Source of the DNA: Squalus acanthias
Taxonomy: Eukaryota
Reading direction: 5' to 3'
Assembly: GCA_030390025.1 (NCBI GenBank)
Contig: CM059438.1
Span: forward strand, 33,666,001-33,730,000
DNA length: 64,000 nucleotides
Part shown: in pieces, positions 21,993 through 63,925 of the stretch
How positions within the stretch are numbered: position 1 is the stretch's first letter
How the letters are laid out: each line of letters begins with the position of its first letter
Notes under the pieces: generated by a model
Told to the model about the DNA's origin: nothing
Databases searched by the model: none
Seen by the model: only the letters and a program-made list of their open reading frames with translations
Position numbers and translations under genes: made by a program

Positions 21993-23902
21993 ATGGAGAG
22001 GGTGAGAGAACGCGCTCATCGCTTCACCGAGCGGGCCTTGGATGCTCTGGTTGACGCAGTGGAGCGCAGACGATGCATGCTGTTCCCAGAGAGTGGCAGG
22101 AGGCCTTTGCCACGCGAGTTCAGAAGAGTGTGGAGGGAGGTGGCTCAGAGCGTCTCCTCCAGGAGCATGGTGCCCAGGACCCATGTCCAGTGCCGCAAAA
22201 AGTTCAACGACCTCACTCGGGTCGTCAGGGTGAGTGGCTTTTTCTCAATACCTCTCCATCCCTCCATCTCAACCTCACTCTATGGCCAGAGGGTCTTAAA
22301 ACCCCAATGCACAACACTCATCCAACACCTATGGCCCTTTCATCAAACACACACACACATTCCACACTTTGCATACAGTAAGGGCTATTCACCTATGGGA
22401 GGCACATCAGGCAAGACCATGGCTGTATATTGTAAGGGCTATTCACCTATGGGAGGCACATCAGGCAAGACCATGGCTGTATATTGACTCAGATGCTGTC
22501 CTTTTTCTTGCAGGCTAAGCTGGCTCATAATCGGAGACAGCAGCAACGGACGGGTGGAGGGCGGCTTCAGCTGCAACCCCTCAGCGATCTGGAGGAGCGC
22601 GTCCACAGGATTGTGGCAAGCCGGGTGATCGGTCCCGTCGCCACTGGAGACGCCGACCCCGTTGTGGACAGCAATGGTAAGGTCATCACCTTTTTGTCCT
22701 CTGTCCTTCCACTTGTCCCTCACAATACCAGCCTTTGACACTTTCAATCCAACTTGCTAACTCGCTGCACTTATTCCTCCCTTACTGCCACCCTGTCCTC
22801 ACGCTAAAGCCACTCTTGTACCTCCCTGCTTTCAGATGGTGATTCACCAGCTGAGGAGATGGTCCCTGAAGCTGCCACTGGGAGTGATGCTGCAGCTGAG
22901 GAGGAAGAGGAAGCTGGAGCATCAGTGCCACCCTCTCCCGAGGAAGCCCATGGCCACACTGGGAACACGCCTTCCCCGGAGGGGAGCAGGGGGGAAGGGG
23001 CTGATGATGGTGAAGTTCCAGGACCCAGCGGGCTGCAGCAACGCCATGGGGGGGGGAGGGAAGAACGGGGGAGCAGGGGGGAAGGGGCTGATGATGGTGA
23101 AGTTCCAGGACCCAGCGGGCTGCAGCAACGCCATGGGGGGGGGAGGGAAGAACGGGAGCCTTCTCCCCAGAGGGAGAGTATGCCAGACACTCCTAATGCA
23201 ATGGACGCAGAGGAGGAACGGCTGATTGCAGAAATGAACAGCCAGGCGGTGGTCATGCACACTGAGCTCATGGGTGCAGTGGGAAGGGTGCCCGAATGCA
23301 TTGAGGCACTGGCAAGGAGTGTGGAGCACTTCGCTGTAGCACAGGCGGATGCCACACTAAAGCTTACTGCTGCAATTCAGTCACTGGCTGCCAGGAACCC
23401 ATCTGAGCCTGCTCTCATGCAGACTCAGATTGAGGCCACGCGAGCACTGACTGCTGCCATCCTCGATGGTTCGTGCACATGTCCCCGGGGCTGTCACCGC
23501 GCCGCAGCAGGCCAGCAATCTGTTCTCAGGCAAATTGCTCCGGATGCTGAAGTGCTGCCCCGTGGGAGTGCCAGTGTGTCGGGCGAGCAGGGAGTTGCTG
23601 TCCTCTCTCACGATGACAGCATTCCTGCTGCCAACACTGTCACTTCTCCACTGCACTTGCCACCGCCTGTAGGACAGACTGCTGCCGCCCATGCAGAGTT
23701 GGTGCAGTCTGCAGCCGGGCCCTCCAGGCCCAGAAGTGGTCGAGGCCGTCCTTCAGGGGCATCTGCAGTGTCAGGGTCTGACAAGCAGCAGCCTTCCACC
23801 AGCCTTGCTGCAGCCACTGAGGTCCCATTACGGAGGAGCAGTAGGGTTAGAAGGGGGGAAGTGCGCAAGGGAAGGAGATCACCCTCGAAGGGCAAAAAGT
23901 AG
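21993..23902 (+). CDS. Harbinger Myb/SANT-like DNA-binding protein, 3 exons (21993-22229, 22514-22676, 22836-23902; ~488 aa)
   Basis: RFTERALDALV...W..VA...RT..QCRKKFNDL trihelix; GT-AG introns (AGG|GTGAGT, TTGCAG|, G|GTAAGG, TTTCAG|) splice in frame into ORF 22859-23902. Confidence 0.88.
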
Positions 23903-29651: not shown

Positions 29652-31525
29652 ATGGAGAGGGTGAGAGAACGAGCTCAGCGCTTCACCGAGCGGGCCTTGG
29701 ATGCTCTGGTTGGCGCGGTGGAGCGCAGAAGATCTATACTCTTCCCTGAGAGTGGCAGGAGGCCTTTGCCACGCGAGTACAGAAGAGTGTGGAGGGAGGT
29801 GGCTCAGAGCGTCTCCTCCAGGAGCATGGTGCCCAGGACCCATGTTCAATGCTGCAAAAAGTTCAACGACCTCACTCGGGTCGTCAGGGTGAGTGGCTTT
29901 TTCTCAATACCTCTCCATCCCTCCATCTCAACCTCACTCTATGGCCAGAGGGTCTTAAAACCCCAATGACAACACTCATCCAACACCTATGGCCCTTTCA
30001 TGAAACACACACACACATTCCACACTTTGCATACAGTAAGGGCTATTCACCTATGGGAGGCACATCAGGCAAGACCATGGCTGCATACAGTAAGGGCTAT
30101 TCACCTATGGGAGGCACATCAGGCAAGACCATGGCTGCATACAGTAAGGGCTATTCAGCTATGGGAGGCACATCAGGCAAGACCATGGCTGTATATTTAC
30201 TCAGATGCTGTCCTTTTTCTTGCAGGCCAAGCTGGCGCATAATCGGAGACAGCAGCAACGGACAGGTGGAGGGCAGCCTCAGCTGCAACCCCTCAGCGAT
30301 CTTGAGGAGCGCGTCCACAGGATTGTGGCAAGCCGGGTGATCGGTCCCGTCGCCACTGGAGACGCCGACCCCGTTCTGGACAGCAATGGTAAGGTCATCA
30401 CCTTTTTGTCCTCTGTCCTTCCACTTGTCCCTCACAACACCAGCCTTTGACACCTTTCAATCCAACTTGCTAACTCGCTGCACTTATTCCTCCCTTACTG
30501 CCACCCTGTCCTCACGCTAAAGCCACTCTTGTACCTCCCTGCTTTCAGATGGTGATTCACCAGCTGAGGAGACGGGCCCTGAAGCTGCCAGTGGGAGTGA
30601 AGCTGCAGCCGAGGAGGAAGAGGAAGCCGGAGCATCAGTGCCACCCTCTCCCGAGGAAGCCCATGCCCACACTGGGAACACGCCTTCCCTGGAGGGGAGC
30701 AGGGGGGAAGGGTCTGATGAGGGTGAAGCTCCAGGACCCAGCGGGCTGCAGCAACGCCATGGGGGTAGGGAAGAACGGGGGCCTTCTCTTCAGAGGGAGA
30801 GTATGCCAGCGACTCCTACTGCAATGGACGCAGAGGAGGAGCGGCTGATCGCAGAAATGAACACCCAGGCGGTGGGCATGCACACTGAGCTCATGGGTGC
30901 AGTGGGAAGGGTGCCCGAATGCATTGAGTCACTGGCAAGGAGTGTGGAGCACTTCGCTGTAGCACAGGCGGATGCCACACTAATGCTTAGTGCTGCAATT
31001 CAGTCACTGACTGCCGTGATCCCATCTCTGACTGCTCTCATGCAGACTCAGATTGAGGCCACGCGAGCACTGACTGCTGCCAACCTCGATGGTTCATTCA
31101 CATGTCCCCGGGGCTCTCACCGCGCCGCAGCAGGCCAGCAATCTGTGCTCCAGCAGATTGCTCCGGATGCTGAAGTGCTGCCCCGTGGGAGTGCCAGTGT
31201 GTCAGTCGAGCAAGGAGTTGCTGTCCTCTCTCACGATGACAGCATTCCTGCTGCCAACACTGTCACTTCTCCACTGCACTTGCCACCGCCTGTAGGACAG
31301 ACTGCTGCTGCCCATGCAGAGTTGGTGCAGTCTGCAGCCGGGCCCTCCAGGCCCAGAACTGGTCGAGGCCGTCCTTCAGGGGCATCTGCAGTGTCAGGGT
31401 CTGACAATCAGCAGCCTTCCACCAGCCTTGCTGCAGCCACTGAGGTCCCATTACGGAGGAGCAGTAGGGTTAGAAGTGGGGAAGTGCGCAAGGGAAGGAG
31501 ATCACCCTCGAAGGGCAAAAAGTAG
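29652..31525 (+). CDS. Harbinger Myb/SANT-like protein, 3 exons (29652-29888, 30226-30388, 30549-31525; ~458 aa)
   Basis: Same exon structure and splice sites as copy A; in frame with ORF 30638-31525. Confidence 0.86.
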
Positions 31526-43385: not shown

Positions 43386-43511
<126 letters not shown>

Positions 43512-49708: not shown

Positions 49709-52700
49709 CATAGGATTACATCGGATATACAGCACAGAAACAGGCCTTTCGGCCCAACCAATCCATGACGGCGTTTATGCTCCACTCGAGCCTCCTCCCA
49801 TCTTTCCTCATCTAACTCTATCAGCATAACCCTCTATTCCCTTCTCCCTCATATGCTTGTCTAGCCTCCCCTTAAATGCATCTATACTATTCGCCTCAAC
49901 CACTCCCTGTGGTAGCGAGTTCCACATTCTCACCACTCTCTGGGTAAAGACATTTCTTCTGAATTCCCTATTGGATTTCTTGGTGACTATCTTATATTGA
50001 TGGCCTCCAGTTATGTTCTTCCCCACAAGTGGAAACATTCTCTCTGTATCCATGATTTAATGACCTCTATTAGGTCACCCCTCAGCCTTCTTTTTTCAAG
50101 AGAAAAGAAACCCAGCCTGTTCATCCTTTCCTGATAGGTATACCCTCGCATTTCTGGTATCATCCTTGTAAATCTTCTCTGCACCCTCTCCAGTGCCTCT
50201 ATATCATTTTTATAATGTGGCGACCAGAATTGCACACAGTACTTCAAGTGTGGTCTAACCAAGGTTCGATACAAGTTTAGCATAACTTCCCTACTTGTCA
50301 ATTCTATCCCTCTAGAAATAAACCCTAGTGCTTGGTTTGCTTTGCTAACCTGTGTCGATACTTTTAGTGATTTGTGTATTTGTACTCCAAGATCCCTTTG
50401 CTCCTCTACCCCATTTAGATTCTTATTTTCCAAGTAATATGTGACCTCCCTATTTTTCTTACCAAAATGTAATACCTCACATTTATCTGTGTTGAATTTC
50501 ATTTGCTAATTATATGCCCATTCTGCAAGTTTATTAATGTCTTCTTGTAATTGGTTGCAGTCCTCCTCAGTATTGACTATCCCCCCTAATTTAGAAATTG
50601 TGTTTTTGATTCCAAAGTCTAAATCGTTATTATAAATTGTGAACAACAGTGGTCCCAGCACTGATCCTTGTGGAACACCACTTCCCACCTTCTGCCACTC
50701 TGAATAGCTACCCTTTACCCCTACTCTCTGCTTTCTGTCTTGAAGCCAGCTAGCTATCCATTCTGCTACTTGTCCCCTGACTCCACATTCATTAGTCAAT
50801 TATGTGGTATCTTATCGAAGGCATTTTGAAAATCTAGATAAATTACATCTGCAGCATTACCCTTGTCTATTCTCTCTGTTACCTCTTCAAAAAATTCAAT
50901 TAGGTTGGTCAAGCAAGACTTTCCCTTTTGAAATCCATGCTGACTATTTATTATTATATTTTTGGTTTTTAGATGTTCTTCCATTTTCTCCTTTAGTAGG
51001 GATTCCATTATTTTTCCTACCACCGATGTTAAGCTGACTGGTCTATAGTTCCCTGGACATGTTCTATCTCCCTTCTTAAATATAGGTATTACATTAGCTA
51101 TCCACCAGTCCTCTGGCACTACACCTTTTTCTAACGAATTACTAAATATGTGAAGTAATGCCTCTGCTATCTTTTCCCTAGATTCTTTTAAAATGAGCGG
51201 ATGTAATCCATCCGGACCAGGGGTTTTATCCTCTTTGAGTTTCATTAGTTTATTTAATATATCTCCTTGTTTTATTTTAAATGCAGTTATCTCATTACTA
51301 ATCTCATCATCCAATGTCAACTCCACCTGTTCTATCTCCCTGGTAAATACTGAAACAAAGTAATTATTTAATATTTCTGCCATCTCTCTATCGTTGTCTG
51401 TGGTATTATCCTCTCCATCCCTTAGTGGTCCTATTTCCATCCTGAACTTCCTTTTTTTATTTACGTGCCTGTAAAATATTTTACTATTTTGTTTTAGGTT
51501 CCTTGATAATTTAATTTCATAGTTCCTCTTTACCTTCCTAATTTTTTTTTGACTTCTTTCCTAATCTCTTCATATTCTCTCTTGTCTTGCTCTCCCTTGC
51601 TGCCCATTTACTTACTGTATGCCTCTTTCCTTACTCTCACGTTTTCCGTTATGGCTTTATTCATCCATGGTGTCTCATTAGTATTTAGCTTGTTCTTGTT
51701 TTTTAGCGGAATATATTTTTCCTGGACTCTGTTGAACACCATTTTAAATGTTTCCCATTGCTGTTCTACATCATTGTTTGCCAAAATTGTTGCCCATTTT
51801 ATTTTCCTAAGTTCTATTCTCAGCCGCTCAAAATCAGCTTTTCTCCAATCTATTACCCTGGTCTTTTGTCATACCCTGTCTTTCTCAATTATTATCTTAA
51901 AGCATATTATATTATGGTCACTATTGCCTAGATGTTCCCCTACTTTTACTTCTCTTATCTGCTCTGGTTCATTCCCCATTACTAGATCCAATAGCGGATC
52001 CTCCCTTTTACATATTGGATTAGAAAGAAGTCCTGTACAAATTGTAGGAACTTCATTCCCTTATCCCCTTTACCTACCCTTTCTATCCAATTAATATCGG
52101 GGTAGTTGAAATTCCCCATGATTATTATTCTATGGGGGAGAAATTAGGTACCTGTGCGCCTCCCATTATCATCCCCGGGGGCCGATAACAGGGTGCTAAC
52201 CACTTACCGCCCGGGCGCGGCGAGAATATAGCTTCCCGCGAAATTCGGCGTGAGGTTTGCAGCGGCGGTATGGCATTGTGCACTGATCTCCTTCACCTGG
52301 AGATCGTGACGTCATCATCGTGCGCATTGCCCCGGACCCGAACTTCGGTTTTGCCCCCTGCAGCATCGCCGGGCGACAACACCAGCGTTCATCGGGAGGC
52401 CGGGCGCTTCGGGGGAATTACTTAACGGCGAGGTGGGGGAAAAAAAATCAAATGCTGTTTTTTTTTCTTTTTTCCCCAGCGCTCGATCAGCCCGGCACTC
52501 TGCTGCAGTGCATCGAGCTGATTGGGTCGGATCGCGGCTGCCGTCGGGGACCAGGTAAGTTGCTTTCCCTTGCAGAGTCTGCAGTGATGGCCCTTCCCTT
52601 TAAGGGAGGGAAGAAGTCTTCCAACGTAGCAGTGCTGTACGGCCCATTGTACAGCGCTGCACACCTACCACCCCGCCTGTTGCCTGTTGTATTCCAGGAA

Positions 52701-53414
52701 GGAAGTGGAGCACTTGAGTTAGCATTCCACTTCCTTCCTGGAGCGCAAAACCACATTTTTTAAAAGTTGAGAAACATTACCGCCTGGCGCTAATTTTTTC
52801 AAGTTTTAAAAGTTAGTGCCCCAAACGGGGCTATAATGAATTTCTCCCCCCAAGTCTTTTACTCATATCCCTACTTTGTCTGCATATTTCTTCCTCCACC
52901 TCCCTTCCACTGTTAGGTGGTCTGTAGACTACACCTATTAGTGTGATTGATCCTTTATTATCTTTTATCTCTATCCACATGGATTCTATTTCTGTTTTGC
53001 TGACAGCTGTGTCACTTTTATCTACTGCCATTATGTTATCTGTAATAAGTACAGCTACTCCACCTCCCCTTTTTGCTCTCTATCTTTTCTAAATATGTTA
53101 TACCCTGCAATGTTTAATTCCCAGTCCTGATTTTTCTTTAGCCATGTCTCAGTAATTTTTACTATGTCTGGTTCCTCGCAACGCACGATTGCCTCCAGCT
53201 CCCCTGTTTTATTATGGACACTGTGTGCATTGCTGTACGGACAGTTTAACTCATTTTTAATAGCAGTTCTTTTCACTTTATTTTTAACCATCTTTTTACA
53301 CTCTTGTTCTATAACTCTATTTATTCCCTGCCCATCAATGTCCTCCCTTACTTTACTCTTTCCTATGCTCTCCTTTCCTGTTTGTTTATATTTAGGCTGG
53401 TTTCATTTCTTGTA
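49709..53414 (-). mobile_element. CR1 LINE (nearly complete ORF2, decayed) inserted in Myb exon 1 of Harbinger C
   Basis: ORFs 53055-53291, 52831-53031, 50796-51440, 50506-50799, 50011-50502, 49808-50053; flanks TGGATCCA/TAGATCTA. Confidence 0.92.
52134..52850. mobile_element. Harbinger-like MITE (717 bp)
   Basis: TIRs GGGGGAGAAATT / AATTTCTCCCCC; the CR1 frame resumes on both sides. Confidence 0.85.
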
Positions 53415-56400
53415 GATCTAGTGTCAGAAGAAGTTTAATGACCTCACATGAGTGGTCAAAGTGAGTGAATGCATCTTCAAATGCCATATCCCACCATCTG
53501 CACCACTAGTCTCACACACTGCTCAATGCACCACACGCCCATCACTCACCTACCAACAATCTCCAGCAATCACGACTCATACCTCACAATCATAGCTTCA
53601 CCTGAGCCTCACACATTTACCAATGCTGCAAGCCTTATACCCACATCTCACACCTTGCACACAATGTCAGCTATTCAATCATGACAGGCACATCACCCAA
53701 ACACATTGCACCACACTCACTCACACACTTCACCCAAACACATTGCACCACACTCACTGACACACTTCACCCAAACACATTGCACCACACTCACTGACAC
53801 ACTTCACCCAAACACATTGCACCACACTCACTGACACACATCACCCAAACACATTGCACCACACTCACTGACACACACATCACCCAAACACATTGCACCA
53901 CACTCACTGACACACACATCACCCAAACACATTGCACCACACTCACTGACACACTTCACCCAAACACATTGCACCACACTCACTGACACACACTTCACCC
54001 AAACACATTGCACCACACTCACTGACACACACTTCACCCAAACACATTGCACCACACTCACTGACACACACATCACCCAAACACATTGCACCACACTCAC
54101 TGACACACTTCACCCAAACACATTGCACCACACTCACTGACACACACTTCACCCAAACACATTGCACCACACTCACTGACACACACTTCACCCAAACACA
54201 TTGCACCACACTCACTGACACACATCACCCAAACTCATTGCACCACACTCACTGACACACACATCACCCAAACACATTGCACCACACTCACTGACACACA
54301 CTTCACCCAAACACATTGCACCACACTCACTGACACACATCACCCAAACACATTGCACCACACTCACTGACAAACATCACCCAAACACATTGCACCACAC
54401 TCACTGACACACTTCACCCAAACACATTGCACCACACTCACTGACACACACATCACCCAAACACATTGCATCACACTCCCTGACAAACTTCACCCAAACA
54501 CATTGCACCACAATCACTGACACACACTTCAGCCCAGACACATTGCACCACACTCACTGACACACACTTCACCCAAACACATTGCACCACACTCACTGAC
54601 ACACACTTCACCCAAACACATTGCACCACACTCACTGACACACTTCACCCAGACACATTGCACCACACTCACTGACACACTTCACCCAAACACATTGCAC
54701 CACACTCACTGACACACACTTCACCCAAACACATTGCACCACACTCACTGACACACTTCACCCAAACACATTGCACCACACTCACTGACACACATCACCC
54801 AAACACATTGCACCACACTCACTGACACACTTCACCCAAACACATTGCACCACACTCACTGACACACATCACCCAAACACATTGCAGCACACTCACTCAC
54901 ACACACATCACCCAGACACATTGCACCACACTCACTGACACACTACATCCAAGCACATTGCACCACACTCACTCACACACACTTCACCCAGACACATTGC
55001 ACCACACTCACTGACACACTTCACCCAAACACATTGCACCACACTCACTGACACACTTCACCCAAACACATTGCACCACACTCACTGACACACTTCACCC
55101 AAACACATTGCACCACACTCACTGACACACTTCACCCAAACACATTGCACCACACTCACTGACACTCATCACCCAAACACATTGCACCACACTCACTGAC
55201 ACACTTCACCCAAACACATTGCACCACACTCACTGACACACTTCACCCAAACACATTGCACCACACTCACTGACAAACATCACCCAAACACATTGCACCA
55301 CACTCACTCACACACACATCACCCAAACACATTGCACCACACTCACTGACACACATCACCCAGACACATTGCACCACACTCACTGACACACACATCACCC
55401 AGACACATTGCACCACACTCACTGACACACACATCACCCAGACACATTGCACCACACTCACTGACACACACATCACCCAGACACATTGCACCACACTCAC
55501 TGACACACACATCACCCAGACACATTGCACCACACTCACTGACACACACATCACCCAAACACATTGCACCACACTCACTGGCACACACTTCACCCAAACA
55601 CATTGCACCACACTCACTGGCACACATCACCCAAACACATTGCACCACACTCACTGACACACACATCACCCAGACACATTGCACCACACTCACTGACACA
55701 CACTTCACCCAAACACATTGCACCACACTCACTGACACACACTTCACCCAAACACATTGCACCACACTCACTGACACACACATCACCCAAACACATTGCA
55801 CCACACTCACTGACACACACTTCACCCAAACACATTGCACCACACTCACTGACACACTTCACCCAAACACATTGCACCACACTCACTGACACACATCACC
55901 CAAACACATTGCACCACACTCACTGACACACACTTCACCCAAACACATTGCACCACACTCACTGACACACACATCACCCAAACACATTGCACCACACTCA
56001 CTGACACACTTCACCCAAACACATTGCACCACACTCACTGACACACACATCACCCAAACACATTGCACCACACTCACTGACACACATCACCCAAACACAT
56101 TGCACCACACTCACTGACACACACATCACCCAAACACATTGCACCACACTCACTGACACACTTCACCCAAACACATTGCACCACACTCACTGACACACAC
56201 TTCACCCAAACACAGTGCACCACACTCACTGACACACTTCACCCAAACACATTGCACCACACTCACTGACACACTTCACCCAAACACATTGCACCACACT
56301 CACTGACACACATCACCCAAACACATTGCACCACACTCACTGACACACACATCACCCAAACACATTGCACCACACTCACTGACACACACTTCACCCAAAC

Positions 56401-59400
56401 ACATTGCACCACACTCACTGACACACTTCACCCAAACACATTGCACCACACTCACTGACACACATCACCCAAACACATTGCACCACACTCACTGACACAC
56501 TTCACCCAAACACATTGCACCACACTCACTGACACACACATCACCCAAACACATTGCACCACACTCACTGACACACACATCACCCAAACACATTGCACCA
56601 CACTCACTGACACACACTTCACCCAAACACATTGCACCACACTCACTGACACACTTCACCCAAACACATTGCTCCACACTCACTGACACACATCACCCAA
56701 ACACATTGCACCACACTCACTGACACACTTCACCCAAACAAATTGCACCACACTCACTGACACACTTCACCCAAACACAGTGCACCACACTCACTGACAC
56801 ACTTCACCCAAACACATTGCACCACACTCACTGACAAACATCACCCAAACACATTGCACCACACTCACTCACACACACATCACCCAAACACATTGCACCA
56901 CACTCACTGACACACACATCACCCAGACACATTGCACCACACTCACTGACACACACATCACCCAAACACATTGCACCTCACTCACTGGCACACACTTCAC
57001 CCAAACACATTGCACCACACTCACTGGCACACATCACCCAAACACATTGCACCACACTCACTGACACACACATCACCCAGACACATTGCACCACACTCAC
57101 TGACACACACTTCACCCAAACACATTGCACCACACTCACTGACACACACATCACCCAAACACATTGCACCACACTCACTGACACACACTTCACCCAAACA
57201 CATTGCACCACACTCACTGACACATTTCACCCAAACACATTGCACCACACTCACTGACACACATCACCCAAACACATTGCACCACACTCACTGACACACA
57301 CTTCACCCAAACACATTGCACCACACTCACTGACACACACATCACCCAAACACATTGCACCACACTCACTGACACACTTCACCCAAACACATTGCACCAC
57401 ACTCACTGACACACACATCACCCAAACACATTGCACCACACTCACTGACACACATCACCCAAACACATTGCACCACACTCACTGACACACACATCACCCA
57501 AACACATTGCACCACACTCACTGACACACTTCACCCAAACACATTGCACCACACTCACTGACACACACTTCACCCAAACACATTGCACCACACTCACTGA
57601 CACACTTCACCCAAACACATTGCACCACACTCACTGACACACTTCACCCAAACACATTGCACCACACTCACTGACACACATCACCCAAACACATTGCACC
57701 ACACTCACTGACACACACATCACCCAAACACATTGCACCACACTCACTGACACACACTTCACCCAAACACATTGCACCACACTCACTGACACACTTCACC
57801 CAAACACATTGCACCACTGACTGACACACATCACCCAAACACATTGCACCACACTCACTGACACACTTCACCCAAACACATTGCACCACACTCACTGACA
57901 CACATCACCCAAACACATTGCACCACACTCACTGACACACACATCACCCAAACACATTGCACCACACTCACTGGCACACACTTCACCCAAACACATTGCA
58001 CCACACTCACTGGCACACATCACCCAAACACATTGCACCACACTCACTGACACACACATCACCCAGACACATTGCACCACACTCACTGACACACACTTCA
58101 CCCAAACACATTGCACCACACTCACTGACACACACTTCACCCAAACACATTGCACCACACTCACTGACACACACATCACCCAAACACATTGCACCACACT
58201 CACTGACACACACTTCACCCAAACACATTGCACCACACTCACTGACACACTTCACCCAAACACATTGCACCACACTCACTGACACACATCACCCAAACAC
58301 ATTGCACCACACTCACTGACACACACTTCACCCAAACACATTGCACCACACTCACTGACACACACATCACCCAAACACATTGCACCACACTCACTGACAC
58401 ACATCACCCAAACACATTGCACCACACTCACTGACACACACATCACCCAAACACATTGCTCCACACTCACTGACACACATCACCCAAACACATTGCACCA
58501 CACTCACTGACACACACATCACCCAAACACATTGCACCACACTCACTGACACACTTCACCCAAACACATTGCACCACACTCACTGACACACACTTCACCC
58601 AAACACAGTGCACCACACTCACTGACACACTTCACCCAAACACATTGCACCACACTCACTGACACACTTCACCCAAACACATTGCACCACACTCACTGAC
58701 ACACATCACCCAAACACATTGCACCACACTCACTGACACACACATCACCCAAACACATTGCACCACACTCACTGACACACATCACCCAAACACATTGCAC
58801 CACACTCACTGACACACACATCACCCAAACACATTGCACCACACTCACTGACACACTTCACCCAAACACATTGCACCAAACTCACTGACACACATCACCC
58901 AAACACATTGCACCACACTCACTGACACACACATCACCCAAACACATTGCACCACACTCACTGGCACACACTTCACCCAAACACATTGCACCACACTCAC
59001 TGGCACACATCACCCAAACACATTGCACCACACTCACTGACACACACATCACCCAGACACATTGCACCACACTCACTGACACACACTTCACCCAAACACA
59101 TTGCACCACACTCACTGACACACACTTCACCCAAACACATTGCACCACACTCACTGACACACACATCACCCAAACACATTGCACCACACTCACTGACACA
59201 CTTCACCCAAACACATTGCACCACACTCACTGACAAACTTCACCCAAACACATTGCACCACACTCACTGACACACATCACCCAAACACATTGCACCACAC
59301 TCACTGACACACACATCACCCAAACACATTGCACCACACTCACTGACACACATCACCCAAACACATTGCACCACACTCACTGACACACTTCACCCAAACA

Positions 59401-59778
59401 CATTGCACCACTGACTGACACACATCACCCAAACACATTGCACCACACTCACTGACACACTTCACCCAAACACATTGCACCACACTCACTGACACACATC
59501 ACCCAAACACATTGCACCACACTCACTGACACACACATCACCCAAACACATTGCACCACACTCACTGACACACATCACCCAAACACATTGCACCACACTC
59601 ACTGACACACACATCACCCAAACACATTGCACCACACTCACTGACACACATCACCCAGACACATTGCACCACACTCACTGACACACTACATCCAAACACA
59701 TTGCACCACACTCACTGACACACTACATTCAAACACATTGCACCACACTCACTCACACACACTTCACCCAGACACATT

Positions 59779-61299
59779 GGGCCGAAAATTGATCCCGGGA
59801 CGCGAGAGTACGCACTGCGTACTCTCGCGTATTCCCACTCCAATTGCCGGTTTTCTGCATGCCCTCCGCATGCGCTGAAAACCGGCAATTGCTCTTCTGA
59901 AAAGGGGGCGGGTCCTCGGTGCATCGCGTGCGCGCTACAGGCTGCGCGCACGCTGTGCACTTCATGCTTTGGACGCGCAGGTAAGTACTGAAGATTTTGG
60001 AAATGTAAAAAGGAGGAGTAAGACCCGCTTTTAAGAAGGTAAGTAGTGAATTAAGTATTTTTTTGAATTATTTTTTTACAGGTATATCTTTTTTAGAGAC
60101 TTTAAAGACAGGTAAGTTTATTTTTATAACTTTTTAAAAGATTTTAAATTTTTTCAAAAATTTAATTTTTTATTTAAAATGGTTAATTTAATTAACTATA
60201 CTTATTTTATTAATGTGATGGGTTTTTTTTTAAAATTTAATTGAGGTTTAGCTGTTATTTTGGGGGGGTGTAAGATTCATAGGGGGAAAAATTCAGCTGC
60301 TTGCGCCTCCCGTTAGCGCCTTAAGAGTGCGCTAATGGGGCGTAAAGCAGCTAACGCCCGGGCGCAGCGCCGCCCACGCCTCCCGTAAAATTCAGCGGGA
60401 GGTTAGCGGCGGCACCAGCTGGTAGCGCCCTGTGGCGCTGCGCCGCCGGCGATGACGTCATCGCCGTGCGCAGCACCCCGCTCGCGCTCCAGCCGCGATC
60501 TTCAGTCGCGCCCCCTGATTTACCGCCAGACGCTATGTCCGACGGGTTCAGGGAGGCGTACGTGCGGCCGGGGCGGCGATATTTAAAGGGGAGGTGGCAG
60601 GCGGCCATTTTTGTTGCTGGCCGCCTGCCAGCACCTGCCCCCGTTGCTGTCCCCGGCCCCCGTGAAGCACCCCCACCGTGAAGTGCCGGCTGCGCTCCAA
60701 GAGCCCGGCACTTCTCTTGAGTGCCGGGCTCTTTTGCCGGCACTCCCGATCCCTGGGGGCCCAGCTGGGCCCCGGTTCGCGCTGCGCAGGGTCCCTCCCC
60801 TTTAAGAAGGGGAGGAAGGCCTGCAATACCGCGGCGCGACGTGCCACAGCGCCTGGCGCTGCGGCACGTAGCGCCAGGATATTCCCTCGCAGCGCCCCAA
60901 GAGGGATGCGGGGTGCTTCCAGTGGCGCCCCGCTTCCCTCTTGGGGCGCAACCACTGAAGTTCCGGCGCGGGGCCGCTAATTTTTTCGGGGCGCTAAAAG
61001 TAGCGCCCCGGCGAAGTTAGCGCCCCAAATGGGGCGCGACTCAATTTTTAGCCCATAGATTTCGCAGGGTGCTGTGAAACTTATGAATGGAAGATGGTGT
61101 GCTGCCATTGGCTCTAACTGAGTCACGTGATCCCACAGCTCGCACGAATTCACTACGCCGCTGGGATACGCAAGCACTGCCCAGCTGATCTCTAGAACAT
61201 GAAGTTCGTGCGAGCTGGATCTGAAAAAGCACAAGCGAGGTGAGAGATCGCGGGGAAGCCTTACCCCCGCGGGAACAGAGCGAGATCAATTTCTGGGCC
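59779..61299. mobile_element. GGCCC-family Harbinger-like element inserted in the satellite, with a nested MITE
   Basis: TIRs GGGCCGAAAATT / AATTTCTGGGCC; TSD ATT; reverse complement of 19865-20609. Confidence 0.9.
60282..61054. mobile_element. Harbinger-like MITE (773 bp) nested in the GGCCC element
   Basis: TIRs GGGGGAAAAATT / AATTTTTAGCCC; TSD ATA. Confidence 0.9.
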
Positions 61300-63925
61300 A
61301 TTGCACCACACTCACTGACACACTTCACCGAGACACATTGCACCACACTCACTGACACACACTTCACCCAAACACAGTGCACCACACTCACTGACACACT
61401 TCACCCAAACACTTTGCACCACACTCACTGACACACTTCACCCAAACACATTGCACCACACTCACTGACACACACATCACCCAAACACATTGCACCACAC
61501 TCACTGACACACATCACCCAAACACATTGCACCACGATCACTGACACACTACATCCAAACACATTGCACCACACTCACTCACACACACTTCACCCAGAAA
61601 CATTGCACCACACTCACTGACACACTTCACCCAGACACATTGCATCACACTCACTGACACACATCACCCAAACACATTGCACCACACTCACTGACACACT
61701 TCACCCAAATACATTGCACCACACTCACTGACACACTTCACCCAAACACATTGCACCACACTCACTGACACACATCACCCAAACACATTGCACCACACTC
61801 ACTCACACACTTCACCCAAACACATTGCACCACACTCACTCACACACATCACCCAAACACATTGCACCACACTCACTAACACACACATCACCCAAACACA
61901 TTGCACCACACTCACTGACACACATCACCCAAACACATTGCACCACACTCACTGACACACATCACCCAAACACATTGCACCACACTCACTGACACACATC
62001 ACCCAAACACATTGCACCACACTCACTAACACACACATCACCCAAACACATTGCACCACACTCACTGACACACATCACCCAAACACATTGCACCACACTC
62101 ACTGACACACATCACCCAAACACATTGCACCACACTCACTGACACACATCACCCAAACACATTGCACCACACTCACTAACACACACATCACCCAAACACA
62201 TTGCACCACACTCACTGACACACATCACCCAAACACATTGCACCACACTCACTGACACACACATCACCCAAACACATTGCACCACACTCACTGACACACA
62301 CATCACCCAAACATATTGCACCACACTCACTGACACACACTTCACCCAAACACATTGCACCACACTCACTGACACACATCACCTAAACACATTGCACCAC
62401 ACTCACTGACACACATCACCCAAACACATTGCACCACACTCACTGACACACACATCACCCAGACACATTGCACCACACTCACTGACACACACTTCACCCA
62501 AACACATTGCACCACACTCACTGACACACACTTCACCCAAACACATTGCACCACACTCACTGACACACACATCACCCAAACACATTGCACCACACTCACT
62601 GACACACACTTCACCCAAACACATTGCACCACACTCACTGACACACACTTCACCCAAACACATTGCACCACACTCACTGACACACACTTCACCCAAACAC
62701 ATTGCACCACACTCACTGACACACACTTCACCCAAACACATTGCACCACTGACTGACACACACATCACGCAAACACATTGCACCACACTCACTGACACAC
62801 TTCCGTTTCTCTTGCAAGCCAATGTGGCTCACAACTGGCATGAGCAGCAACAGACAGGCTGGGGCAAAGCACGGCTGCAGAACATGACCCAGATGGAGGA
62901 GACAGTGCTGCAGATAATTGGAGAGGCCGTCACCGAAGCTGTGGAGAGTGGTGAGGTTGAAAGCATTGATGATGATGGTACGCTCAAACCTAATCCTTCT
63001 TCTCACATCCCTCTTACCTCTCATGGCACAATCTCTTCTCACTTACAACCTGCTGATGGTGTAAGCATGCACATCTTGCTTTCCCCCCTCCCCTCACCAC
63101 AACCCAACCCTTGTGCCTTTCTCCTTTCAGATACCCAAGAACTGCCTGCAGCTCAGCCAGTGTGGGAAGAACTAGAGGAGAGAGTGAAGGAGAAGAAGAG
63201 GCACCATCACTCAATCTGACACTCCCAGGCACCAACTCAGAAAATGGCACTATGCGAACTTTAGAGGGTAGTATAGAGGCGGGATCTGCACGTGGTGAGT
63301 CACTGGGCACGAGTGGGCTACGGCCAAGCCGGGGGGAAAGGGTAGCCCAGGTGCCAGCTCCTCGGAGGGCGAGTTCGCACACGAGTTCTGCTGCACAGAA
63401 ATCAGATGAGGACTTCGATGGGGCGGCCTTCAGAAGAAAGGTGATGAGCATGCACACAGAACTGCTTGGTGCAATGGCAGGCCTGCCAGAGAGCCTCTTG
63501 TCACTGCTAACGAGCATGGAGGAGTCCGGCTCCAATACTGCACGGGGCTTTGTGTGGAGCTTGGAGCCCATGATTTCCAGGATGGAAGTGATGGGGCAGC
63601 TCCATTAGAGAACTTGTGGATCCAACCTTGATCCTGGGTGTGATGGGCGATGTCGCAGCTTCCATTGCAGCACAAGTGGAAGCGACCCAACGTCTGAGTG
63701 CTGCAGTGGAAGCTCAGACTTCCGCCATGTAGGTTCAGCTTGCTGCCACGCAAGCTCAGACTGCTGCCATCATGGCTGAGTTTACGAATGTGGAAAGGGG
63801 ATTGCAGGGTCTCACAGCAGTCCAGCAATCTGTCCTCCAACAGATGGGTAAGAATACTGAGGCGCCGCCCCAAGGGAGTGGCAGTTGTTCCGTGGAGCAA
63901 GAACCTGCTGTCCTCTCTCAGGATT

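Follow-up and report, generated by a model that had tools for sequence, protein, structure and literature searches.

The tandem array in the window, by which the whole 64-kb stretch of DNA analysed is meant, is very probably a minisatellite that grew in place from a single unit in intron 1 of a Harbinger Myb/SANT gene, as also happened in more than 100 other copies of the element, most likely through many separate duplications. The proposal of a sequence-only reading, that a Harbinger intron seeded a satellite, is supported by the presence of the monomer in other family copies and by 27 of 29 resolved array ends consisting of Myb sequence; as a 'direct case' of such seeding the in-place origin stands, but the array is not a one-off, being one of an estimated ~300. 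Multi-unit copies do not go back to a single lineage and remain framed by the Myb exons, and the array described here has private variants to either side of an insertion that came later, in favour of local growth.

The array and the gene copy around it

The array consists of two blocks on the plus strand, to which Tandem Repeats Finder assigns 160.7 copies of period 37 with 94% matches (block 1, 53,682-59,779) and 39.6 copies of the same period with 93-94% matches (block 2, 61,299-62,800). Together they hold ~200 head-to-tail units of 37 or 39 bp, within the 10-100 bp class, and add up to the 7.6 kb reported previously, where a 1.52-kb non-repeat insertion between the blocks had gone unmentioned. 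This insertion (59,779-61,298) is a nested non-autonomous Harbinger-type element with imperfect TIRs and an ATT target duplication, which lies inside a unit and itself contains a second MITE-like element (60,282-61,054) with an ATA duplication; the same nested-element family sits at the identical unit base in two other arrays.

After parsing, 81 units of block 1 and 22 of block 2 measure 37 bp, while 75 and 17 respectively measure 39 bp. Four unit types make up 113 of the 159 units of block 1, in which multi-unit runs recur, a 12-unit run appearing twice, 2,393 bp apart, against a longest recurring run of 8 units in 200 shuffles. The common units are free of AG on the sense strand and CTGAC is counted 146 times in the first and 34 times in the second block, in agreement with the earlier description of mostly AG-free units with a branch-point-like motif. 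Of the four genome-wide matches of a rare multi-base variant, three belong to this array and occur to either side of the MITE.

The surrounding Myb gene, that of Harbinger copy C, is dead, since similarity to the family copies, to which it is ~90% identical, begins only at ~53,415, where the left end is lost, the exon 1 remnant (53,415-53,460, plus strand) is 5'-truncated and carries in-frame stops, and the ancestral acceptor CAG has become CAA at 62,815-62,817, with the nearest AG one base out of frame. Of the array's reported position between a splice donor and acceptor, the donor stands (GTGAGT at 53,461), but the acceptor does not. The unique 5' part of intron 1 (53,461-53,681), from the donor to the first unit, is colinear with the family copies; the polypyrimidine tract with the mutated acceptor (62,801-62,817) is followed by exon 2 (62,818-62,977), homologous to exon 2 of copy A, all on the plus strand. 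Exon 2 and intron 2 are 82-87% identical to the top genomic copies; a Pfam match of exon 2 to Phage_int_M was weak, below the cut-off, and was dismissed. The gene is identified as Myb/SANT-like by its ~90% identity to the family, in which exon 1 of one copy (L002) matches PF13873 (Myb_DNA-bind_5), and the sister copy A matches both PF13873 and PF13359 (DDE_Tnp_4 transposase), a pairing which is taken here as the mark of Harbinger elements. Of a transposase gene, the downstream sequence holds just 270 bp, which share 71% identity with the copy A transposase in its 5' part. The segment 52,134-52,850, considered as the left end of the element, has inverted ends of its own and is a separate MITE.

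The unit in the family and in the genome

A genome search with exon 2 gave 1,795 candidates, 40 of which were scored, and 29 other loci were fetched. Of these loci, selected through exon 2, 25 carry a single intact unit, three a gapped or partly deleted one, and one (L011) has eight units that all share two private changes. The unit obtained earlier by collapsing the array is therefore genuine, and family copies do carry the monomer at the 3' end of intron 1, where it had been expected. With 632 single-unit copies in an exact-pattern genome search, the unit is a transposon segment that occurs singly within the element.

The same kind of search recovered 106 multi-unit copies with an intact Myb-intron 5' end and 105 with an intact 3' end. 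For 34 of 100 listed 5' ends a partner 3' end is listed no more than 10 kb away, with 2-142 units (median 11) between the two, and this pairing suggests ~300 multi-unit loci genome-wide. A 26-mer spanning the 37-bp-type junction has 25,834 exact matches, compared with 0 for its reversed control, from which the repeat occupies at least 0.96 Mb of the genome; extrapolation from the unit mix of the window would bring it to ~2 Mb. Array sizes range from 2 units to more than 57 kb and more than 1,500 units. In short-read contigs of four other organisms head-to-tail joints were present throughout, with ratios of unit depth to adjacent intron depth of ~16, 11, 3.5 and 10 and, by a second estimate, 4.2, 2.9, 1.5 and 4.3; as summed contig depth is no copy number, these values are at most a hint that relatives share the family and some of its arrays.

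A sister family, represented in the window by copies A and B, carries a 54-bp repeat at the corresponding site. Copy A, the comparator with PF13873 and PF13359, has two such units at its intron-1 end (22,378-22,486, plus strand), and copy B three (30,028-30,195, plus strand), with a junction different from that of copy A. The 54-bp unit is a different, overlapping segment of the same intron end as the 37/39-bp unit, which aligns with the copy A intron end at a score of 86.5, compared with 24.2 +/- 6.6 for shuffles (best of 500, 45). The alignment to copy A noted from the letters thus lies above chance, but copy A belongs to the sister family and not to the source family. Genome-wide, 13,632 junctions of the 54-bp repeat stand against 7,633 intron ends, and 30 fetched loci (~20 places, all picked by the junction) carry 2-6 units, their exon 2 region showing 90-100% identity to copy A. 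The sister family is younger, and its repeat evidently travels with the element. With repeats in two families, the intron-1 end is a site that tolerates and repeatedly yields tandem repeats.

Where duplications start and where arrays grow

The single unit is bounded by near-repeats, TGACA at offset 39 and CACATC versus CACTTC at offset 37, and in 29 of 30 cases the first junction belongs to the four hybrids that these near-repeats predict. Short repeats bounding the unit and hybrid junctions being both found, the pattern fits the short-direct-repeat model of Haber and Louis in the summaries given in PMC3389668 and PMC6947457. The two ends have a matching TGACA in 21 of 30 multi-unit and 10 of 30 single-unit copies (p=0.009), an enrichment confounded with subfamily, as the make-up of the two sets differs; the remaining 9 of the 30 multi-unit copies have no TGACA match. 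The process itself may have been replication slippage, unequal exchange or post-excision gap repair.

Multi-unit loci are unevenly distributed. Of 145 multi-unit loci, 62 have another within 1.5 Mb, while for perfect single-unit copies the figure is 7 of 50 (8 of 2,000 permutations). On 13 contigs of known length the outer tenth holds 24 of 88 multi-unit and 2 of 25 single-unit copies, where contig ends may not be telomeres. Human minisatellites show a subtelomeric bias.

In a first step, slippage or misaligned gap repair at the near-repeats would yield the first dimer. Such dimers may often have formed early, some probably in copies still mobile, which could then have spread short arrays. In a second step, local unequal exchange or conversion would enlarge and turn over the arrays in dead copies, presumably more frequently in certain chromosome regions and nearer to contig ends.

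One origin or many

A tree of the flanks, with the repeat left out, was built from the 68 of 108 rows that had sufficient flank. It requires 16 label changes for the multi-unit copies, 8 of them forced by starred branches, counts which do not separate gain from loss, and a single array-bearing clade or subfamily is rejected (AU p=2e-55). Removing the copies picked by exon 2, which leaves 47 rows, has the same outcome (11 changes, AU p=2e-42), as does taking only the 11 arrays with at least 15 units (AU p=4e-5), and the flanks of multi-unit copies diverge by 18% on average. Multi-unit copies are nevertheless partly clustered, with 16 changes versus 22.5 on shuffling (3 of 500), clustering which also exceeds the shuffles in the 47-row tree (15 of 500). 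Given this partial clustering, transposition has probably passed on some of the short arrays, which would then not have been born in place.

In 31 of 38 arrays of at least 4 units the majority is the family's own unit, which among single-unit copies is present in 7 of 29 and in 3 of 25, and a perfect unit stands first in 17 and last in 20 of 30 arrays, compared with 7 of 30 single-unit copies. This exceeds what late founding by decayed monomers leads one to expect, and the greater likeness of arrays to the family unit points to early founding, biased turnover or exchange between loci. Local growth is favoured by the near-private multi-base variant and the recurring 12-unit run of the array in the window, by the changes common to all units of L011 and by 5 of 10 two-unit copies, in which both units share the same non-family base. 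Several arrays have fixed private changes, and four neighbouring multi-unit copies on one contig (C2) carry one common variant despite differing flanks.

Exchange between loci could mean that ectopic gene conversion moves units between arrays, which would evolve partly in concert, especially among neighbours. The closeness of the arrays to the family unit, the variant common to neighbours of different subfamilies at 50-58 Mb of C2 and the clustering of multi-unit loci on chromosomes are in line with it, but the multi-base variant is near-private to the array of the window (three of its four matches), the private changes fixed in several arrays speak against conversion between them, and the variant shared on C2 is among the commoner recurrent ones, present in 7 of the arrays scanned, so that conversion on this scale appears unlikely.

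Alternatively, master copies might have spread short arrays of 2-6 units by transposition, single units being collapses and only long arrays having grown in place. Such a history would resemble that of the sister family, in which 2-6 units are now the rule and a junction was counted by eye beside 48 of 55 listed intron ends in the first 27 Mb of contig C1, and the family-unit majority in 31 of 38 arrays and the tree clustering favour it as well. It is made quite improbable by a ratio of single-unit to multi-unit copies of about six to one, by single-unit copies in each large subfamily on the tree, by the non-family bases common to both units of two-unit copies, as expected if duplication came after mutation, and by the existence of four junction types. 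Separate duplications of a single intron unit, followed by growth in place, are hence preferred.

The host gene and the branch-point motif

The last coding exon of DNTT (TdT) is at 43,386-43,472 on the minus strand (PF14791; TdT E=5e-10, Pol mu 2e-4), in a frame (43,389-43,511, minus) that matches the Pol beta thumb family in a Pfam scan covering 150 of 355 candidate frames. The preceding exons, which match adjoining TdT residues, are situated in neighbouring stretches at distances of ~90 and ~102 kb; a genome search with PF14792 gave a single match elsewhere and missed the palm exons, which were found in these stretches. In all, three exons match TdT best, two of them with adjoining residues, and are closer to TdT than to Pol mu. 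Judged by these adjoining exons, the array sits antisense in the last DNTT intron, of ~90 kb, upstream of the final coding exon, by which the presumed DNTT intron of the sequence-only reading is confirmed, with the gene on the minus strand.

A function of the multiplied branch-point region, through an effect on how the Myb gene or the DNTT transcript of the host is spliced, is very improbable. The CTGAC of the unit does place an A ~23 nt before the family acceptor, and the DNTT-sense strand of the array contains 203 GTGAGT hexamers and 201 TGTGTG, but the truncated, stop-bearing exon 1 and the mutated acceptor of copy C argue against a splicing role, CTGAC is absent from the DNTT-sense strand of the array, and arrays are present at hundreds of unrelated sites on both strands. 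As the acceptor of copy C is mutated and the DNTT transcript reads the opposite strand, the branch-point-like motif is probably a passenger; most likely the array has no function, and the repeat is unlikely to be of consequence for DNTT.

Do arrays leave the element?

Arrays were sampled blind to their flanks through a rare variant unit with 135 matches, the first 100 listed of which fall in 31 places: 20 were fetched on both sides, 7 more lie within ~30 kb of a listed Myb end (judged by eye) and 4 are on small contigs. In the 20 fetched arrays, 27 of the 29 resolved ends are Myb sequence and two are not; the other 11 of 40 ends are at assembly gaps (4) or contig ends (2) or were not reached (5). 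At least one Myb flank is present in 18 of the 20, and for none of the 20 was a lack of Myb flanks at both ends demonstrated. What looked like a non-Myb end on contig C356 turned out to be a 9-kb insertion within the array. The first array on C1, 34.3 kb long, has Myb sequence at both ends, so element sequence flanks the arrays in register, and the longest sampled arrays extend over at least 57, 40, 39 and 35 kb, two of them being interrupted by an insertion or a gap. Compared with a classical satellite, arrays thus exceed 57 kb and yet remain inside the element where resolved, the array of the window lying in a gene intron.

That Harbinger copies acquired the repeat, by insertion or capture, from a free satellite, as 25,834 exact junctions, arrays above 57 kb and two ends adjoining non-Myb DNA might suggest, is hardly credible and largely refuted, as in single-unit copies the unit belongs to intron 1 itself and can be aligned to the intron end of the sister family, the arrays lie exactly at the single-unit site and in register, and a satellite devoid of Harbinger flanks, whose wide occurrence would have spoken for a free origin, was not found among the 20 sampled arrays, which keep their Myb flanks although chosen regardless of them.

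Significance

The beginnings of minisatellites are hard to study since the founders are usually lost. Here, one 37-39-bp template is present in well over a thousand genomic settings, and all stages from one unit to more than 1,500 are still framed by the parent exons. The value of the family lies mainly in this large natural experiment on minisatellite birth and growth, which permits direct tests of what starts duplication (microhomology of the ends), what sustains growth (chromosome region, recombination) and whether units pass between distant arrays. One might go further and see the 3' end of Myb intron 1 as a standing minisatellite nursery with two families, of 37/39 bp and 54 bp, the ~300 arrays of the older family, none of them shown outside the element, exchanging units with neighbours and so forming a dispersed satellite of ~2 Mb that evolves in concert and whose expansion is set by chromosome region; taken as a whole, this extension is doubtful.

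Comparison with known systems

Minisatellites and satellites derived from transposable elements form an established class, for which PMC9659126 and PMC6947457 tabulate cases from Alu, B1, MaLR, Ogre, Tetris and MITEs, and expansion inside elements is described in PMC7004042 and PMC4079207, the former terming element-borne arrays a natural experiment. Current models are stated in PMC3389668 to account for only 6% of the human tandem repeats that stem from transposable elements. The literature searched contained no Harbinger-intron or shark case and nothing combining Harbinger, Myb-like, intron and minisatellite, and the main text of three reviews does not mention 'Harbinger'; subscription papers, Repbase or Dfam entries and supplements may describe the repeat. 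Minisatellites born from transposable elements are therefore a known kind, for whose Harbinger-intron source no precedent was found in this literature.

A known repeat that originated at a single site within a dispersed transposon, and did so at several loci, has the same mode of origin as the one described here, which differs in its 37-39-bp unit from an intron of the protein gene of a DNA transposon, its ~300 estimated loci and its arrays of more than 57 kb. Human minisatellites derived from Alu and other transposable elements, as presented with the Haber-Louis model in PMC3389668 and PMC6947457, are alike in the short near-repeats that bound the unit and in a start during or after insertion followed by local growth; by comparison with these accounts the present case has one sharp hotspot in one family with very large arrays, and two registers that lead to mixed 37- and 39-bp units.

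The 3'UTR repeats of Ogre elements in Lathyrus sativus, which expand to form satellites as described in PMC7004042, share with the Harbinger case an element that spreads the template, expansion in place and a regional bias. According to that account, however, the Ogre LTR-retrotransposon carries ready-made arrays, whereas the Harbinger copies have mostly one unit, and Ogre repeats expand mainly in primary constrictions, whereas the bias here is towards clusters and contig ends. TIR-220 of the Tetris element of Drosophila virilis, as reported in PMC4079207, is similarly an internal segment of a DNA transposon that gave rise to arrays of kilobases; it is located in the terminal repeats of a foldback element, while the repeat described here comes from the intron of a Harbinger Myb gene.

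Nested insertions and unit variants

Three arrays of the 37/39-bp unit, the repeat at the 3' end of intron 1 of the Harbinger Myb/SANT gene, have been entered by one MITE family of ~745 bp, which inserted four times, always at one particular base within the unit and accompanied by an ATT duplication. One of these copies interrupts the array in the window (59,779-61,298), two are found at locus L221 (contig C12, 90.87 Mb) and one at L231 (C16, 19.55 Mb); two of the three copies outside the window are 95-99% identical to the window MITE and the remaining one ~80%. As all four insertions hit the identical base, a preference of this MITE family for the unit as insertion target is suggested.

Four multi-unit copies that neighbour one another (L068-L071, C2 50.2-57.9 Mb) have one unit variant in common, despite which their flanks are scattered over separate parts of the tree built from the flanks of family copies; local conversion or recurrent mutation is a possible origin. 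In one subfamily (L122-L124, L135, L140, L141, L145 and L146), CTCAC replaces the branch-point-like CTGAC, the identical TGACA at both unit ends is missing and the branch-point-like A is retained; the tree clade of this subfamily consists solely of single-unit copies.

Large arrays

A rare unit variant is common to several large arrays on C13 (38.21-38.23 and 38.59-38.62 Mb), C494 and C22, which stop at assembly gaps or contig ends; the true number of arrays may be smaller, with some of these being fragments or haplotypes of one another. On one strand of C2406, among the matches listed, at least five 3' ends of multi-unit copies are spaced 70-115 kb apart, possibly reflecting a large segmental repeat.

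Genomic setting of the window array

The window array resides in element C, a dead Harbinger copy antisense within the last DNTT intron, which extends over ~90 kb from window position 43,472 to ~133,480 (extended coordinates). On the minus, DNTT-sense, strand, the array (53,682-62,800) presents 203 donor-like GTGAGT hexamers and numerous TG runs. The MITE upstream of the Myb remnant (52,134-52,850) is distinct from element C and has inverted ends of its own. Only the 5' part of the transposase is retained, at 335-700 of L159, the stretch just past the window end; thus, the bulk of the transposase gene is absent from element C.

At the equivalent intron 1 end, most copies of the young sister Harbinger family, the fetched loci of which were all picked by the unit junction, carry genome-wide a 54-bp VNTR of 2-6 units, located in the window at 22,378-22,486 and 30,028-30,195.
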